In this document: piece after piece, positions 1-55,878 of the stretch
Numbering within the stretch: the first letter of the stretch is position 1
Layout: each line of letters starts with the position of its first letter
Origin: Escherichia phage phiEc_1
Direction: 5' to 3' (one strand)
Sequence record: LC768462.1
DNA: 64,000 nt
Translations under genes and position numbers: made by a program
Notes under the pieces: model-generated
Told to the model about the DNA's origin: nothing
Seen by the model: only the letters and a program-made list of their open reading frames with translations
Databases searched by the model: none

Positions 1-180
1 GCACCAGCAGCATCTCCAGCCCCTGTCCCACCATTAGCAATAGGTACATTATCCAGAGTAGAAACACTTCCCAACCCTAGATTAGAACGAGCACCAGCAG
101 CATCTCCAGCCCCTGTCCCACCATTAGCAATAGGTACATTATCCAGAGTAGAAACACTTCCCAACCCTAGATTAGAACGA
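1..180. repeat. perfect tandem duplication (2 x 90 bp) inside tail fiber gene; diverged copies at ~181-215 and ~450-500
   Basis: bases 1-90 identical to 91-180; encodes repeated 30-aa fibre-repeat unit. Confidence 0.85.
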
Positions 181-1967
181 GCACTAGCAGCATTTTTAGC
201 TCCAGTGCCTCCTCTTTCAACACCTAGAGCCAAATCGCCAACTCTTCCAGGCGAGGTACTGTAACATCCCCACCCATTATTATCCACAAAGAGGTAGGTT
301 TCTTTGTTAGGAGATAGTAATCTACTCTCCCCAGAGGCTTGATCAACTCTATCTATAGATAAATTGGAACGAGCAGCATCAACAGTAGTTGCCCCTGTAC
401 CACCATTAGCTATAGGAATTGTGTTGAGTGTAGCTATGGAGCTTAGACCTAGATTAGAACGAGCACTAGCAGCGTCTTTAGCTCCAGTGCCTCCTTGTGT
501 GACAGACAGTGCTGTAGTGAGTCCCGTGAGGGATGTTATATCAGAGTTTGTACCAGAAGCGGCAGCACCTAAAATTGATCTGGAGATGTTCACATTACCA
601 GTAATCTCATCAGGAGCTTGGTTATTTACAGTAACAACATAAGGTTTCTGAGCCTGTACAGACCCATTGTACTGAGAGTCTTTATCAGAATCTGGTGCTC
701 TTATTGCCTCCCCTCCAGTCCAATCAGGAAGTCGAATGTTGATAAAATTAGTAGAATCTGCATCGGTAATACCATCTGCCAATTTACCCCAAGAGAAGTA
801 TTGTTTAGCCCCTGCTTGCCATTCAGTTTCAGAAACAACAGGAAGTTGTCCACTGACAAGGGATGGGCCTAAATCTGAAGCAGACTCTTTAGACACTAGA
901 CGACCATCGGCTGGAAGAACGCCCGGATAGGAGATATTCTTTGTTGGGTCATAAGGGAACATTACCATCTCACCAAGATATAGAGAAGGGTTTCCTGTTG
1001 GAATGGTAATGTCAATATTACCACTGGAGTCTGGAGAACGGGAATTAACAGTAAGAATTCTACCTTCAGTTTTAACAGGAGTTAATGTTTTGTTAGCAGC
1101 AACAGTATAAAATTCATACTTAGTAGCTTCCCAAACTAAGACCTTCTCACCAACTTGGCGATACTGAGCGTCAGCATCAGCTTCTGCTTTAGATTGATAT
1201 GTCTTGGTGGTTTTATCAAACTTGTCATTAATCTCTTGACGACTGTACTGAGCAACGTTCAGAACATTTCCTAAACCTACCGTCTCTTTGTTAAGCGTTA
1301 GAGCAACCTCTCCATCAAGAGCTGGACCGCCGTTAATAGAGACAGAACGGACAGATGGGATTAAATTAGCAATATTCTCTAGAGTGGTTTTGTGGACGGT
1401 ATTGTCATCTTTGTCAACATAGAAACCCAAGTCACCTAGCTCTGGAACACCGGTAGGTGCTGTATCCAAATCCTTAACAGAACCATCTTTTCCGGGATCG
1501 CCTTCTGGAATACCTAAAGATATTACACCAGTGTTAGGATTAAAAGAACCAGTAGCCGGAGTTCCTGGAGGAAGCGTAGTCACATTAACGGACATTCCCA
1601 ACAGAACATCAAGCTGATTCTGGACCTCAATGAGCTTCTGATTAATGAGAGCAACAGCATTGTTAGCATCAGAGACTGCTGCATTAGTCTGAGCAATCAA
1701 GCTCATCAGACGAGCATCTTGATCTTTAAAATCCTGCTTAAGATCTTCGATATCCTGCTTCATCAGAACACCTTGTTGATACAGACGTTCTACTTCAGCG
1801 ATCAAATCATCAATTGTACCAAACTTAGATTCTGCTAACAGTGCCCAATATTTGGAATCAGCTGCATATTCTGCTGCTTGCTTGTAAGCTCCGATAGAGC
1901 CTTCAGTAGCACCAAACTGCCCAACGTTATTCACTGCATCAGGTGCTTGGTTATTATAAACGATCAT
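1..1967 (-). CDS. tail fiber protein (partial; runs off window start)
   Basis: ATG at 1967 on minus strand preceded by AAGGAG; N-terminal side-tail-fiber-like region, collagen-like GDPGKDG, repeated GGTGA..AAxARSNLGL fibre-repeat motifs; no stop before window edge. Confidence 0.75.
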   Translation of the reverse strand, partial: MIVYNNQAPDAVNNVGQFGATEGSIGAYKQAAEYAADSKYWALLAESKFGTIDDLIAEVERLYQQGVLMKQDIEDLKQDFKDQDARLMSLIAQTNAAVSDANNAVALINQKLIEVQNQLDVLLGMSVNVTTLPPGTPATGSFNPNTGVISLGIPEGDPGKDGSVKDLDTAPTGVPELGDLGFYVDKDDNTVHKTTLENIANLIPSVRSVSINGGPALDGEVALTLNKETVGLGNVLNVAQYSRQEINDKFDKTTKTYQSKAEADADAQYRQVGEKVLVWEATKYEFYTVAANKTLTPVKTEGRILTVNSRSPDSSGNIDITIPTGNPSLYLGEMVMFPYDPTKNISYPGVLPADGRLVSKESASDLGPSLVSGQLPVVSETEWQAGAKQYFSWGKLADGITDADSTNFINIRLPDWTGGEAIRAPDSDKDSQYNGSVQAQKPYVVTVNNQAPDEITGNVNISRSILGAAASGTNSDITSLTGLTTALSVTQGGTGAKDAASARSNLGLSSIATLNTIPIANGGTGATTVDAARSNLSIDRVDQASGESRLLSPNKETYLFVDNNGWGCYSTSPGRVGDLALGVERGGTGAKNAASARSNLGLGSVSTLDNVPIANGGTGAGDAAGARSNLGLGSVSTLDNVPIANGGTGAGDAAG

Positions 1968-12309: not shown

Positions 12310-12337
12310 TTGACAGCCTTTTCCTTTATTATATAGT
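12310..12337 (+). promoter_or_regulatory. sigma70-type early promoter
   Basis: TTGACA-16 nt-TATAGT with A-rich upstream, 45 nt before first early ORF. Confidence 0.65.
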
Positions 12338-14641: not shown

Positions 14642-14670
14642 TTGACACCGGAAAAAGCCTGATATATAGT
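14642..14670 (+). promoter_or_regulatory. strong sigma70 promoter
   Basis: TTGACA-17 nt-TATAGT, A-rich UP-like element upstream. Confidence 0.7.
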
Positions 14671-15274: not shown

Positions 15275-15303
15275 TTGACAGCGAAAACAACATGATTCAT
15301 AAT
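15275..15303 (+). promoter_or_regulatory. strong sigma70 promoter
   Basis: TTGACA-17 nt-CATAAT, A-rich upstream. Confidence 0.7.
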
Positions 15304-20048: not shown

Positions 20049-20345
20049 ATGACTTTAGAAGTATATAAATTCCTTTTTGTAAGCTGTTTAACTATCAGCG
20101 TTATAGGATTTATTGTTCTCAGAAACAAAGCAGCAAGCTGGGAAAGAATGTATAAATCCCTAGTTCGAGTGGATGAGATGTATAATGAGAAAGTTAAAGT
20201 AACACTCAACGATCTTATTATGCAAGTTGAAGACAGAAATAAGCGTCTTCAGAACCTCAACCATGAAGTATTACGACTTGCTCGTGCTAATGAAGACTTA
20301 CGAGTGGCTATTGCTAAGCAGCAGGAGATTAACAGTGAAAGTTAA
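20049..20345 (+). CDS. membrane-anchored coiled-coil protein
   Basis: N-terminal hydrophobic segment then heptad-like region. Confidence 0.5.
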   Translation: MTLEVYKFLFVSCLTISVIGFIVLRNKAASWERMYKSLVRVDEMYNEKVKVTLNDLIMQVEDRNKRLQNLNHEVLRLARANEDLRVAIAKQQEINSES

Positions 20346-20571
20346 TATTAAATCCGATCGTACAATGCTTCGCTTAAATAACATGAAGCCGGGCGTTCTA
20401 TTTGAGCGTAAAGACTCTCTTTATATTAGAACCGACACACTATACGCAGATAACTATGTGAACTGTGTTGATGTGGTAACTGGAAAGCTCATGCCTTTTA
20501 AACGGGATGAAGTCTGCCAAGTACGTAGTGATCTTCACATAACCAACATAGAGGCTAAAGATGAAGATTGA
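20335..20571 (+). CDS. small paralog family member 1
   Basis: GTG start with AGGAG SD; shares MK..L..G.VF...V.L..G pattern with 7 other ORFs. Confidence 0.5.
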   Translation: MKVNIKSDRTMLRLNNMKPGVLFERKDSLYIRTDTLYADNYVNCVDVVTGKLMPFKRDEVCQVRSDLHITNIEAKDED

Positions 20572-20812
20572 TCTTGAGATGAAAGCTAAAGAATTGTGTG
20601 TGGGTGATTTGAAACTTGGTGATGTATTCCAAGTTAAGGCAACATGTATTGATTATTACATGATCGTTCAGTTATATACACCACATGTGTCAGAGACTGA
20701 TCTTCGGAATGGTTGTGTAGTGCTCAGTTTAAGCACCAATCAAGTAATGAAGCTAGATTCAAACTTACCTGTTTCAGTTATCCATGATGCAGTAATTACC
20801 AATCGGAAGTGA
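20561..20812 (+). CDS. small paralog family member 2
   Basis: paralog pattern (LKLGDVFQV...). Confidence 0.55.
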   Translation: MKIDLEMKAKELCVGDLKLGDVFQVKATCIDYYMIVQLYTPHVSETDLRNGCVVLSLSTNQVMKLDSNLPVSVIHDAVITNRK

Positions 20813-20814
20813 AT

Positions 20815-21027
20815 ATGAACATTGAAAAGAAGGTTGTTGACGAGGCTGTTCAGTTACGATCTCTTGAAACACATGATGTATTTGTGTGGGGAGGCAGTCT
20901 GTTTCAGAAATCTGCTTATGCTGTAGAGGGCGGGGTTCGTTGTTTTAATATCTTCAACAATGAGATGCAAATCCTTCCTAACTTCGCTCATGTTAATAAA
21001 CTTATCCACCTTTCTATATATCAATAA
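20815..21027 (+). CDS. small paralog family member 3
   Basis: paralog pattern (LETHDVFVW...). Confidence 0.5.
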   Translation: MNIEKKVVDEAVQLRSLETHDVFVWGGSLFQKSAYAVEGGVRCFNIFNNEMQILPNFAHVNKLIHLSIYQ

Positions 21028-21037
21028 GGGCAATTAG

Positions 21038-21256
21038 ATGGAAATTAAAGTAGTTGATTATCCTAAATATGCAAATGCAGAGGACGTTAAAGGTGGTGAT
21101 GTTTTCTCTTATGATAAACGTTTCTGGCTGATGCTAGAAGATAAAACCCCTGATGGTTTGTGTAAGGCTGCTAACTTGAGCAGTGGTTCTGTTGAAGTCT
21201 TCGGTCTATCAACCACTGTTATGCCACGACCTGATCTGTGTTTATCCCAAAAGTAA
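21038..21256 (+). CDS. small paralog family member 4
   Basis: paralog pattern (VKGGDVFSY...). Confidence 0.55.
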   Translation: MEIKVVDYPKYANAEDVKGGDVFSYDKRFWLMLEDKTPDGLCKAANLSSGSVEVFGLSTTVMPRPDLCLSQK

Positions 21257-22848: not shown

Positions 22849-23022
22849 TTATGTTCAAGTGGTTTAAACGTCTATTCCATCTGCATGATTGGGAGACAAT
22901 AAAAGAAATTCGTTTACACATATATAATGAGATCGGTCAAATAGAAGACACAGGTACTCGTTATATACTTCGATGTAAAACATGTGGTCATATCACCAAA
23001 CGAGATATGATCTAAATCTTAT

Positions 23023-23095
23023 GCGCTCTTAGCTCAATGGATAGAGCAGTAGCCTTCTAAGCTATTGGTTACAGGTTCGAGTCCTGTAGGGCGCA
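23023..23095 (+). tRNA. tRNA-Arg (anticodon UCU); CCA encoded at 23096-23098
   Basis: hand-folded cloverleaf: 7-bp acceptor stem, D-arm, anticodon loop CU-UCU-AA, T-arm ACAGG-TTCGAGT-CCTGT. Confidence 0.9.
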
Positions 23096-23117
23096 CCAAA
23101 TCTAATAGGAGGTAATT

Positions 23118-23417
23118 ATGAGTTGGGGTGGTGTAATATCCTTAATCTGTATCTTCCTTGTCTGCATAGCCCTTACAGGCTGCGTACAGAGCCGTCCTGA
23201 TGGATGGTGTGCAGTAGCAGTGGAAGGTGTTTGTGTTTCTCGCTGGCATAAGGGTGAGAAGATTCCTTCTGGTGAAATTGATATGCGATGGAACGGAGCA
23301 ACCTGTTCTAATGCTAACCCTTCTATCAACGAAGAGAAGTCTACACCGGATAATGTTGTTATTGATACAGCATTGTGGTGTGGTGGCTCTACGATTACAA
23401 CCGGTAAGGAGTGGTGA
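23118..23417 (+). CDS. lipoprotein
   Basis: signal peptide with lipobox LTGC. Confidence 0.6.
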   Translation: MSWGGVISLICIFLVCIALTGCVQSRPDGWCAVAVEGVCVSRWHKGEKIPSGEIDMRWNGATCSNANPSINEEKSTPDNVVIDTALWCGGSTITTGKEW

Positions 23418-23418
23418 T

Positions 23419-23616
23419 ATGAATTACACATCTACAAAGGTGTTAATTGATTCGATTAATAACTCCTCAGAAACTGTACAGGAGCGTTTAATACAAGATG
23501 TTAGCAATGACATTAAGTTCTTTGTTAAGAGCCGCCTGTTAGGTTCTAAGGCTTATTACAGAGCTAAAGCAGAGCTTACAAAGAGGATGTTTCTTTTACA
23601 TGGTTTGGTATATTAA
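23419..23616 (+). CDS. hypothetical protein
   Basis: ATG with AAGGAG SD 7 nt upstream. Confidence 0.45.
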   Translation: MNYTSTKVLIDSINNSSETVQERLIQDVSNDIKFFVKSRLLGSKAYYRAKAELTKRMFLLHGLVY

Positions 23617-23856: not shown

Positions 23857-24030
23857 ATGAGTTGTTTTGGTGGCGGTGAAGTAGATGACGATGATGACAT
23901 GGAATCCAACGGTACATGTCCTGATTGTGGATGTGAGACGTTTGATGGGGTGTCTGTTTATCCTGCCTGTAGTTACTCACCAGTGATCTGTAAAACATGT
24001 GGTGATCAGCCGTGTGACCAATCTTGTTAA
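23857..24030 (+). CDS. small acidic Cys-rich protein
   Basis: 57 aa, 9 Cys. Confidence 0.35.
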   Translation: MSCFGGGEVDDDDDMESNGTCPDCGCETFDGVSVYPACSYSPVICKTCGDQPCDQSC

Positions 24031-53896: not shown

Positions 53897-54247
53897 ATGC
53901 AAAACACATTAAGTGATAACTTAGGGTTTATCGTTTTCTCAGCTCTTGTATTCTTTGGTGGTATGAAGTTTAACGAATATCAAACAGACAGCAGTAATCT
54001 GGACAAAGAGAAGCACCAGCAAGAGTTAGAGATTGAAAGAAGTAGAGCAGCTGATGAAGTTGCTCAGAGAGTTCTTACCGGTTTATCTAACTGGAAGAAG
54101 AACACGGAAACCGTTTATAAAGAGATGCATTATGAGAAAACTAAACCAGTTTTTTATAATGTCTGCGCTAGTGATGAGTATGTCAGCTTGTTCAACGAGC
54201 GACAACAGCAGGCAATCAATGCCCTTACCAACAAACCTAAAAGCTGA
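53897..54247 (+). CDS. putative i-spanin
   Basis: N-terminal TM helix then coiled-coil; o-spanin-like lipoprotein ORF overlaps in +1 frame. Confidence 0.5.
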   Translation: MQNTLSDNLGFIVFSALVFFGGMKFNEYQTDSSNLDKEKHQQELEIERSRAADEVAQRVLTGLSNWKKNTETVYKEMHYEKTKPVFYNVCASDEYVSLFNERQQQAINALTNKPKS

Positions 54248-54391
54248 ATGTAGGGTTGACCTACCTCTTTTAGAAAGTGCTCAAGGAAAAGCACTAGCCA
54301 CTACGTTGGAGTGGTATCAGGACCAGTACACAGAATGTGCTGCTAATCACAATGGATTGTTAGAAGCTCTGAAAGAGCGTGGAATAGAATA

Positions 54392-54392
<1 letters not shown>
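54132..54392 (+). CDS. putative o-spanin (outer-membrane lipoprotein)
   Basis: starts inside previous gene in another frame; signal peptide with lipobox-like MSAC. Confidence 0.5.

Positions 54393-55878
<1,486 letters not shown>

Follow-up and report, generated by a model that had tools for sequence, protein, structure and literature searches.

A candidate LptDE-blocking lipoprotein of the Rtp45 family in the early region of Escherichia phage phiEc_1

The lipoprotein gene and its surroundings

Directly downstream of its tRNA-Arg gene, Escherichia phage phiEc_1 (sequence record LC768462.1) carries a small gene for a predicted lipoprotein, and the family and likely function of this protein are the subject of this work. 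The analysis covers a stretch of 64,000 nucleotides, referred to here as the window, and the coordinates of all features are collected in Table 1. The open reading frame (ORF) runs from an ATG at 23118 to a TGA at 23415-23417, which makes 99 codons, and a longer N-terminus is ruled out by an in-frame TAG at 23106-23108. The protein begins with MSWGGVISLICIFLVCIALTGC, followed by VQSRPDGW..., and the hydrophobic core of its signal peptide lies at residues 6-19, where 11-residue Kyte-Doolittle means reach up to 3.5. A hydrophobic leader with an LTGC lipobox had been proposed for this ORF in an earlier, sequence-only reading of the DNA, and both the ORF list and the hydropathy scan confirm it.

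The sorting of E. coli lipoproteins follows the Lol rule, by which the residue after the lipidated cysteine decides the target membrane. In the phiEc_1 protein this residue is Val, not Asp, and we therefore predict outer-membrane sorting along with lipidation at Cys22. The gene is real and under purifying selection, with a ratio of non-synonymous to synonymous substitution rates (dN/dS) of 0.05-0.30 over the alignable parts in comparisons with four orthologs. The opposite strand has an ORF for 109 residues (23102-23431), which we take as a shadow ORF of the lipoprotein gene. The next ORF starts at an ATG at 23419, 1 nt past the lipoprotein stop, as part of a tightly packed run of small plus-strand genes.

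The region is 96-99% identical to phiEco32-like E. coli podoviruses (Kuravirus, Gordonclarkvirinae), namely Ec3-ASingh, DE5, SkaterBoy/Bas90 and MN03, and the genome is about 98% identical to Bas90, DE5 and Ec3-ASingh. Head genes occupy the minus strand at 1-11 kb of the window, early and middle genes the plus strand from ~12 to 57.6 kb, and the end of the late cluster the minus strand from 58.7 kb. A further ~13 kb of late region lies beyond the window and holds the tail fibres, holin, endolysin, nozzle, tail needle and first ejection proteins. The synteny of tRNA-Arg and lipoprotein gene is kept in Kuraviruses, with the same order in phiEco32, Bas90 and LAMP. The spacer between the two genes is 19 nt here (23099-23117) and 143 nt in Bas90 (L001:10098-10240), a difference that amounts to an indel of ~120 nt inside an otherwise 98.8% identical region.

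Several lines of evidence place the gene in the early class. Three near-consensus sigma-70-like promoters head the early block of small plus-strand ORFs in which it lies and, as judged from their sequence, presumably transcribe it. A different motif, the phage-sigma promoter motif TAATGTATA, occurs five times in the window against 0.64 expected and likely marks middle and late transcription starts; the scan of the window found none on the plus strand before 46374. In phiEco32 the ortholog, phi32_106 ('putative phage lipoprotein'), likewise follows tRNA-Arg, and it falls in the block of coding sequences (CDS 69-125) that the SU10 genome paper assigns to the early genes. Position, promoter motifs and the SU10 assignment thus give good support to early expression in phiEc_1. 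The sequence-only reading had put the gene directly downstream of tRNA-Arg in the early region, and this placement stands, with the tRNA 19 nt upstream and early expression predicted by position.

Family membership and likeness to Rtp45

Profile searches establish the protein as a full-length member of the known Rtp45 family. It matches the Pfam family PF24052 ('Phage lipoprotein family') with E=7.4e-35 and 119.2 bits against a cutoff of 27, over profile positions 1-80 of 80, and phrog_4281 with E=1.6e-33. Both families also take in Rtp45 of phage Rtp, SE_Oeko of phage Oekolampad and the lipoproteins of Webervirus. The family is small: at E<=1e-3 it comprises 15 clusters (50% identity) among 1.84 billion representatives, of which 14 are lipobox proteins of 73-109 residues, and the fifteenth, a repeat protein of 476 residues, looks spurious. 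In a MAFFT alignment of 20 family representatives C22, G29, C31, G37, C39 and G60 are invariant, L19 and G21 of the lipobox are at least 90% conserved, and the alignments are colinear from the lipobox through a C-terminal KEW. NCBIfam gave no match, either for the lipoprotein or for the gp19 protein described below.

Besides phi32_106, the orthologs include the 'putative lipoprotein' of SU10, gp106 of LAMP and Bas90_0100. The gene is present in about 90 Gordonclarkvirinae records, including phiEco32, SU10, LAMP, ES17 and Bas89-Bas94, and it adjoins a tRNA in every Gordonclarkvirinae genome where its position was checked. Kuravirus alleles have lengths of 93, 99 and 108 residues, and differ in a central segment bounded by cysteines. 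The same Cys-bounded insertion is found in a 94-residue PF24052 lipoprotein on a 50-kb Logan contig, SRR28250349_233 (L017:8001-8285), which is 43% identical to the protein of the window and has the auxiliary genes KilA-N, TerB/C/D, NAMPT and PRPP synthetase as neighbours. This contig is closest to prolate podoviruses of the GAP52/A24 type, and the insertion subtype therefore seems older than the genus Kuravirus. A further relative with the insertion, P0011, is represented by contigs of ~0.6 kb.

The founding member of the family is Rtp45, and Dunbar et al. (PNAS 2025, PMC12685063) solved the structure of LptDE(M) with Rtp45 by cryo-electron microscopy. In that structure Rtp45 sits between LptE and LptM on the periplasmic rim of the barrel of LptD; its residues 30-35 form a sheet with LptD 318-323, and a long hairpin rises in the LptD lumen. 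Extracellular loop 4 (EL4) of LptD is shifted outward by up to 20 angstroms, and in this position it would not allow the phage receptor-binding protein (RBP) to bind.

The phiEc_1 protein resembles Rtp45 in these parts. A phmmer search against the PDB aligned residues 6-66 with chain D of 9RPS, which is Rtp45 (E=8.9e-14), and the two proteins have in common the block RPDGWCA..GVCV..W..G..P.GE.D.R..G. Cys31 and Cys39 align with the Cys30-Cys38 disulfide of Rtp45, and this pair is invariant across the family. In the alignment residues 31-36 fall on the strand by which Rtp45 pairs with LptD 318-323, and the beta-hairpin that follows them corresponds to the element that reaches up the LptD lumen. 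Between Cys63 and Cys88, which probably form a second disulfide, lies the podovirus-specific insertion; more speculatively, the loop that they bound may contact LptE, LptM or the jellyroll domain.

An AlphaFold2 (AF2) model, built with the family alignment as input, has a moderate mean confidence (predicted local distance difference test, pLDDT, 75.5), with high values at residues 31-60 and 90-99 and values of ~50-65 at residues 61-90, the insertion. Its strands cover residues 31-35, 38-44, 47-50, 52-64 and 87-98. When the model was compared with the PDB using Foldseek, the top match was again 9rps_D (E=1.7e-3, probability 1.00, target-normalised template-modelling score 0.73). It was the only credible one, the next match having E=4. 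At the level of the model, then, the similarity in fold to Rtp45 is established.

The phmmer search of the PDB also returned designed armadillo-repeat proteins, with E down to 7e-7 for the whole sequence. These matches involve the variable C-terminal part only, contain no significant single stretch and were set aside as repeat-summed noise.

A homolog of the LptD-binding receptor-binding proteins in Kuraviruses

In many siphoviruses the Rtp45 family has a fixed partner. In Rogunavirus (Rogue1), Dhillonvirus (bov11C2, Oekolampad) and Tunavirus Sfin-5 the lipoprotein gene stands directly before a gene for a protein of ~320 residues, and the pair is convergent with gpJ. The neighbour belongs to the family of LptD-binding RBPs (9RPT_C, E=8.7e-67; DUF6453; phrog_1265). 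The Oekolampad RBP (PDB 9RPT) binds the extracellular face of open LptD, and in the work of Maffei et al. (PMC8594841) deletions of lptD loops led to resistance to seven small siphoviruses, exactly those that have this RBP module in common.

A T1-like LptD module, consisting of the lipoprotein and DUF6453 genes, is also carried by MG065665, MG065671 and MG065675 ('Campylobacter phage A131/A120/A118', 47-50 kb). In this they are like E. coli Drexlerviridae, and their Campylobacter jejuni host label looks doubtful.

The same RBP family has a homolog in Kuraviruses. With the Rogue1 RBP as query, tblastn matched Gordonclarkvirinae genomes across ~94% of the RBP length. In Bas90 the matching gene is Bas90_0015, the equivalent of SU10 gp19, whose product of 343 residues matches DUF6453 (E=9.7e-24) and phrog_1265 (E=9.5e-109); its sole match in the PDB is 9RPT_C, the LptD-bound Oekolampad RBP (E=1.9e-9). 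The gp19 protein is colinear over its full length with the siphovirus LptD-binding RBPs except for a divergent N-terminal stretch of 30 residues, which would be the end that faces the tail in siphoviruses. A reciprocal tblastn search with the Kuravirus homolog found about 90 Gordonclarkvirinae and about 210 siphovirus records. The gene has at least four allele classes, at 100, 71, 62 and 46% identity. Genes of the Bas90_0015 type are annotated 'membrane protein / moron'.

The gene belongs to the late structural operon. There it directly follows the SU10 tail-needle gene (7z4b_EA, E=1.7e-210) and precedes the genes for the transglycosylase and the ejection proteins, at L007:18137-19168 in Bas90, L014:8250-9278 on the minus strand in Ec3-ASingh and 20058-21086 in SU10 (NC_027395). 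A tblastn search of the window, which is short of ~13 kb of late region, detected no DUF6453 gene with the Rogue1 RBP as query. In Ec3-ASingh, the closest complete relative, the gene lies ~3.8 kb past the point where the window ends, and Bas90 and SU10 have it as well. Both the lipoprotein and the DUF6453 gene were seen in 12 genomes (Bas90, Bas93, Bas94, SU10, LAMP, ECBP2, EK010, MN05, CHD5UKE1, FH3, EP335 and PE006). Furthermore, the Kuravirus lipoprotein (E=4e-17) and gp19 (E=4e-21) both have their nearest relatives in the Klebsiella Weberviruses.

Proposed function

The best overall explanation of these results, to which we give a probability of about 0.7, is that the gene encodes an early prolipoprotein of the Rtp45 family that blocks LptDE by an Rtp45-like mechanism, and so acts as an LptDE-directed superinfection-exclusion lipoprotein. 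The argument is one of analogy with Rtp45. A superinfection-exclusion or receptor-blocking lipoprotein was what the sequence-only reading had suggested, and the suggestion now has computational support from the PF24052 and phrog_4281 matches, the 9RPS_D alignment, the predicted fold and the DUF6453 homolog in related phages.

In the mechanism that we propose, the prolipoprotein would be produced early and exported; after its lipidation at Cys22, Lol would deliver it to the inner leaflet of the outer membrane. The mature protein of ~8 kDa would then dock on the periplasmic rim of LptDE, the translocon for lipopolysaccharide (LPS). There the strand after Cys31 would pair with a barrel strand of LptD, at its base; the fold would be braced by the Cys31-Cys39 disulfide, and the following beta-hairpin would reach up the lumen of the barrel. 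Extracellular loop 4 would be pushed outward and LptD held closed, in a state that the phage's LptD-binding RBP could not engage. A quoted figure for LptDE is a few hundred copies per cell, and these copies would be closed to LptD-binding phage tips before lysis. Infected cells, and the envelope fragments left after lysis, would no longer adsorb LptD-using phages, with less superinfection and less loss of progeny as the result.

The blocked receptor would most likely be the phage's own, because Kuraviruses carry the DUF6453 homolog beside the tail-needle gene. That LptD is in fact the terminal receptor of Kuraviruses is, on these sequence comparisons, an evenly balanced proposition. The same even odds apply to a wider account, in which an overlooked DUF6453 RBP (the SU10 gp19 equivalent) would sit at the tail needle and act after the long fibres have bound O-antigen, with the lipoprotein as its cognate exclusion factor. 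With as much to be said for it as against it, this account would also have siphoviruses and prolate podoviruses exchange an LptD module of RBP plus blocker. The two genes of the module would have been divided between the late and early transcription classes, and the blocker would have gained a disulfide-closed variable loop; on these points too we would put the chances at one in two.

A number of observations weigh against this explanation. The identity to Rtp45, which lies in the N-terminal half, is ~44% over just 55 residues. A Cys-bounded insertion of 15-30 residues is present in the Kuravirus proteins. The n-region of the signal peptide is without Lys or Arg, unlike that of Rtp45 and most family members. 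For Rtp45 itself PMC12685063 is a structural account, and the available part of it contains no in vivo exclusion assay. The lipoprotein gene lies in the early block and the DUF6453 gene in the late tail module, unlike in most siphoviruses, where the two are neighbours. However, adjacency to the RBP gene is typical rather than universal, since Webervirus shows the same separation.

Further difficulties concern the virion. Shotgun proteomics of SU10 detected gp11-13, gp16-18 and gp20-24 but not gp19, and the SU10 cryo-electron microscopy paper does not mention gp19; the RBP homolog is therefore a putative virion protein. The SU10 tail needle was resolved to 15 angstroms only, with threefold symmetry imposed, which could hide a single-copy tip protein, although we regard this as an excuse and not as evidence. 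In addition, the 93-, 99- and 108-residue lipoprotein alleles show no co-variation with the gp19 alleles (e.g. in Bas90, MN05, CHD5UKE1, ECBP2 and EK010). This result is neutral if LptD is bound by the lipoprotein on one face and by gp19 on the other.

The literature on host range also points the other way. Kuraviruses are described as strictly O-antigen dependent, and in BASEL-2 all Gordonclarkvirinae are strictly O16-dependent. The same study proposes the short tail fibres for a second receptor-binding step, and argues that virulent O-antigen-dependent phages would not need exclusion. That said, O-antigen loss is an easy route to resistance, lptD being essential, and a requirement for LptD could for this reason have been missed.

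Alternative explanations

Several of these difficulties would be accommodated if the lipoprotein served in cross-exclusion only, locking LptDE against competing siphoviruses while the Kuravirus itself did not use LptD and gp19 had some other role. The escape of gp19 from SU10 virion proteomics, its absence from the SU10 virion model, the independent variation of the two proteins and the lack of linkage between their genes are all in its favour. Against it, the DUF6453 gene sits in a late structural operon between the tail-needle and ejection-protein genes, at least 12 Gordonclarkvirinae genomes carry both genes, and each is found in about 90 records and in every allele class. The full-length colinearity of gp19 with LptD-binding RBPs, and the fact that both proteins have the same nearest relatives, the Webervirus versions, count against it too. 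We consider cross-exclusion alone unlikely, though it fares better than the other alternatives.

Less probable again is that the fold is the same and the target different, such that a diverged Kuravirus branch, equipped with the additional Cys-bounded loop, blocks some other outer-membrane protein or acts at some other site. The limited identity to Rtp45, confined to the N-terminal half, and the lineage-specific insertion are compatible with this, as is the fact that gp19 is only 24-28% identical to RBPs of proven LptD specificity. Known LptD-specific RBPs are, however, just 33% identical to each other, and the parts of Rtp45 described as contacting LptD (strand 30-35 and the hairpin) map to the best-conserved block. 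Moreover, in the genomes examined the PF24052 members lie beside a DUF6453 gene or in the same genome as one, whereas T1, the sole FhuA-dependent phage checked, is without both.

Very doubtful is the proposal that exclusion is a by-product and the lipoprotein an inhibitor for host takeover, which would occupy the LptD lumen to stop LPS or O-antigen insertion or to weaken the outer membrane. It is true that the Rtp45 hairpin fills the lumen, the route of the LPS sugars (PMC12685063), and that the gene lies among early genes with a presumed role in host takeover. On the other side, Rtp45 was co-overexpressed with LptDE, with no toxicity reported in the available part of that paper, the fixed genomic association of the family is with receptor-binding proteins, and O-antigen already on the surface would be unaffected within one lytic cycle.

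A lysis function, as an o-spanin, a unimolecular spanin or another envelope-disrupting lipoprotein, is suggested by the small size and predicted outer-membrane location and by the lack of an annotated spanin adjoining the holin-endolysin cassette of relatives, but is contradicted by the data and has next to no probability, since a canonical overlapped spanin pair lies elsewhere in the window (53897-54392) and the lipoprotein belongs to a different family, in the early block and outside any lysis cassette, with no adjacent i-spanin and no C-terminal membrane segment (C-terminal 11-residue hydropathy below 0.8). The Rz/Rz1 pair, the missing membrane segment and the missing lysis cassette also tell against the spanin-independent envelope effector that the sequence-only reading had entertained.

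Other features of the window

The overlapped spanin pair has the phage sigma-factor gene (54852-55499) as a neighbour and is a long way from the holin-endolysin cassette. The o-spanin annotations of Bas94 and LAMP begin at a Met further downstream (MPLPTN...), and so leave out the signal peptide and lipobox. Two small plus-strand ORFs near the lipoprotein gene are cysteine-rich: one at 23857-24030 (57 residues, CPDCGC...CKTCGDQPCDQSC) and one at 22851-23015 (54 residues, CKTCGH, phrog_8294). Both could encode zinc-binding host-takeover proteins. At the start of the window (1-213, in the long-tail-fibre gene) the first ~200 bases align twice to the same stretch of ~105-123 nt in Ec3-ASingh, which suggests a tandem duplication relative to that phage.

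Table 1. Features of the lipoprotein locus and of the rest of the window, with the evidence for each
Feature	Position in window	Strand	Evidence and remarks
tRNA-Arg (anticodon TCT)	23023..23098	+	ARAGORN; 19 nt upstream of the lipoprotein gene; context, no mechanistic part
Shine-Dalgarno AGGAGG	23107..23112	+	5 nt ahead of the ATG; read straight from the sequence
Prolipoprotein coding sequence, 99 residues	23118..23417, including stop	+	ORF list, Pfam, PHROG, PDB match, orthologs, dN/dS
Predicted type II signal peptide, residues 1-21	23118..23180	+	Hydropathy scan; near-identical in Kuravirus orthologs
Lipobox L19-T20-G21-C22	23172..23183	+	C22 predicted to be lipidated and to be the first residue of the mature protein
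Conserved core, residues 26-60 (RPDGWCAVAVEGVCVSRWHKGEKIPSGEIDMRWNG)	23193..23297	+	phmmer to 9RPS_D, MAFFT, AF2
Podovirus-specific variable insertion between Cys63 and Cys88	23304..23381	+	Alignments; absent from siphovirus members
Conserved C-terminal strand GGSTITTGKEW	23382..23414	+	Family motif sG.v...[KR]EW; AF2 87-98, pLDDT ~88
Three near-consensus sigma-70-like promoters	12310-12337, 14642-14670, 15275-15303	+	Consensus scan, 11/12 matches each
Phage-sigma motif sites	2763 (-), 46374 (+), 52953 (-), 53025 (+), 63205 (-)		Motif scan
i-spanin (Rz-like)	53897-54247	+	phrog_1152, E=2.7e-37
o-spanin (Rz1-like)	54132-54392	+	Starts MRKLNQFFIMSALVMSMSAC; lipobox MSAC; phrog_2425

Significance

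Part of what we describe is already known: the phiEco32 copy has long been annotated 'putative phage lipoprotein', and the PF24052 family has recently been characterised. The literature that could be searched here, on Kuravirus, phiEco32 or SU10 with LptD and on DUF6453 or PF24052, yielded no paper that connects Kuraviruses with LptD. Nor did we find in it that gp19 had been recognised as a homolog of the DUF6453 RBPs, or that the module had been proposed to be split between temporal classes in podoviruses.

Kuraviruses are common E. coli phages with a broad host range, and gut studies have been made of some of them, ES17 for example. Published models of the step that follows O-antigen binding invoke the short tail fibres and the tail needle. 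Kuraviruses carry both halves of the siphovirus LptD module, and this provides a concrete candidate for their terminal receptor. LptD is essential and conserved, which bears on the evolution of resistance and on ideas of 'phage steering'. A function would also be assigned to two genes that are annotated 'hypothetical' or 'membrane protein' in about 90 genomes. More generally, exclusion lipoproteins would be found away from receptor-binding loci as well, and cross-exclusion is predicted between unrelated phage families that share one receptor. Should the link to LptD fail, the gene remains an ordinary member of a small family of phage lipoproteins.

Comparison with known systems

Small lipoproteins that exclude other phages are known from several systems. 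Cor of T1, phi80 and N15 (phrog_1119) blocks FhuA and is, like the protein proposed here, a small exclusion lipoprotein; it is encoded at the receptor-binding locus of T1-like phages. The phiEc_1 protein has no match to phrog_1119, and BLASTP of T1 Cor against it was not significant; T1 Cor matches members of the PF24052 family over short N-terminal stretches only. The FhuA-dependent T1 has neither PF24052 nor DUF6453, and its locus consists of N15 gp22/23-like genes and Cor.

Another functional parallel is Llp of phage T5, which is also a small outer-membrane lipoprotein made early, and which binds the periplasmic face of its receptor and alters the extracellular loops. According to PMC12685063, Llp targets FhuA by long-range allostery, whereas Rtp45 physically displaces a loop. 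Membership of the phiEc_1 protein in the Llp group was considered and rejected: a sequence search of the PDB with E up to 10 gave only 9RPS_D and the spurious designed repeat proteins.

Within the family, the nearest relatives outside the podoviruses are the lipoproteins of Webervirus (Klebsiella Drexlerviridae), e.g. FZ10 gp31 (E=4e-17). Their C-terminus, TVTTTGKEW, is nearly identical to that of the Kuravirus proteins, and their gene too lies apart from the RBP gene, among replication genes. They differ in being without the Cys-bounded insertion, and in having the RBP gene after a gpJ-like tail-tip gene. The evidence for the Webervirus receptor is confined to a Webervirus training study (PMC11234896), in which resistant Klebsiella mutants had acquired a missense mutation in lptD. 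The gene for FZ10 gp31 (L010:11995-12222, 75 residues) lies ~10 kb from the DUF6453 gene gp23. The annotation given to it, 'PDDEXK-like family protein' or, in F20, a gene that overlaps a methyltransferase, looks like an error.

The closest known systems are the LptDE-directed superinfection-exclusion lipoproteins Rtp45 of coliphage Rtp (UniProt Q333D9) and SE_Oeko. Their phages are siphoviruses, whereas Kuravirus is a podovirus with a prolate head, and their genes lie beside that of the RBP, whereas ~40 kb separate the Kuravirus gene, in the early block, from the gene for the RBP homolog. The Kuravirus protein further differs from both in its Cys-bounded insertion of 15-30 residues and in a signal peptide without Lys or Arg. 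It agrees with them in Pfam and PHROG family, in colinearity from lipobox to KEW, in the disulfide pair, in the RPDGWC and VP[AS]GE[IV]D[MIV]R blocks, in predicted fold and, on the Kuravirus side through the genomes of relatives, in the DUF6453 partner.

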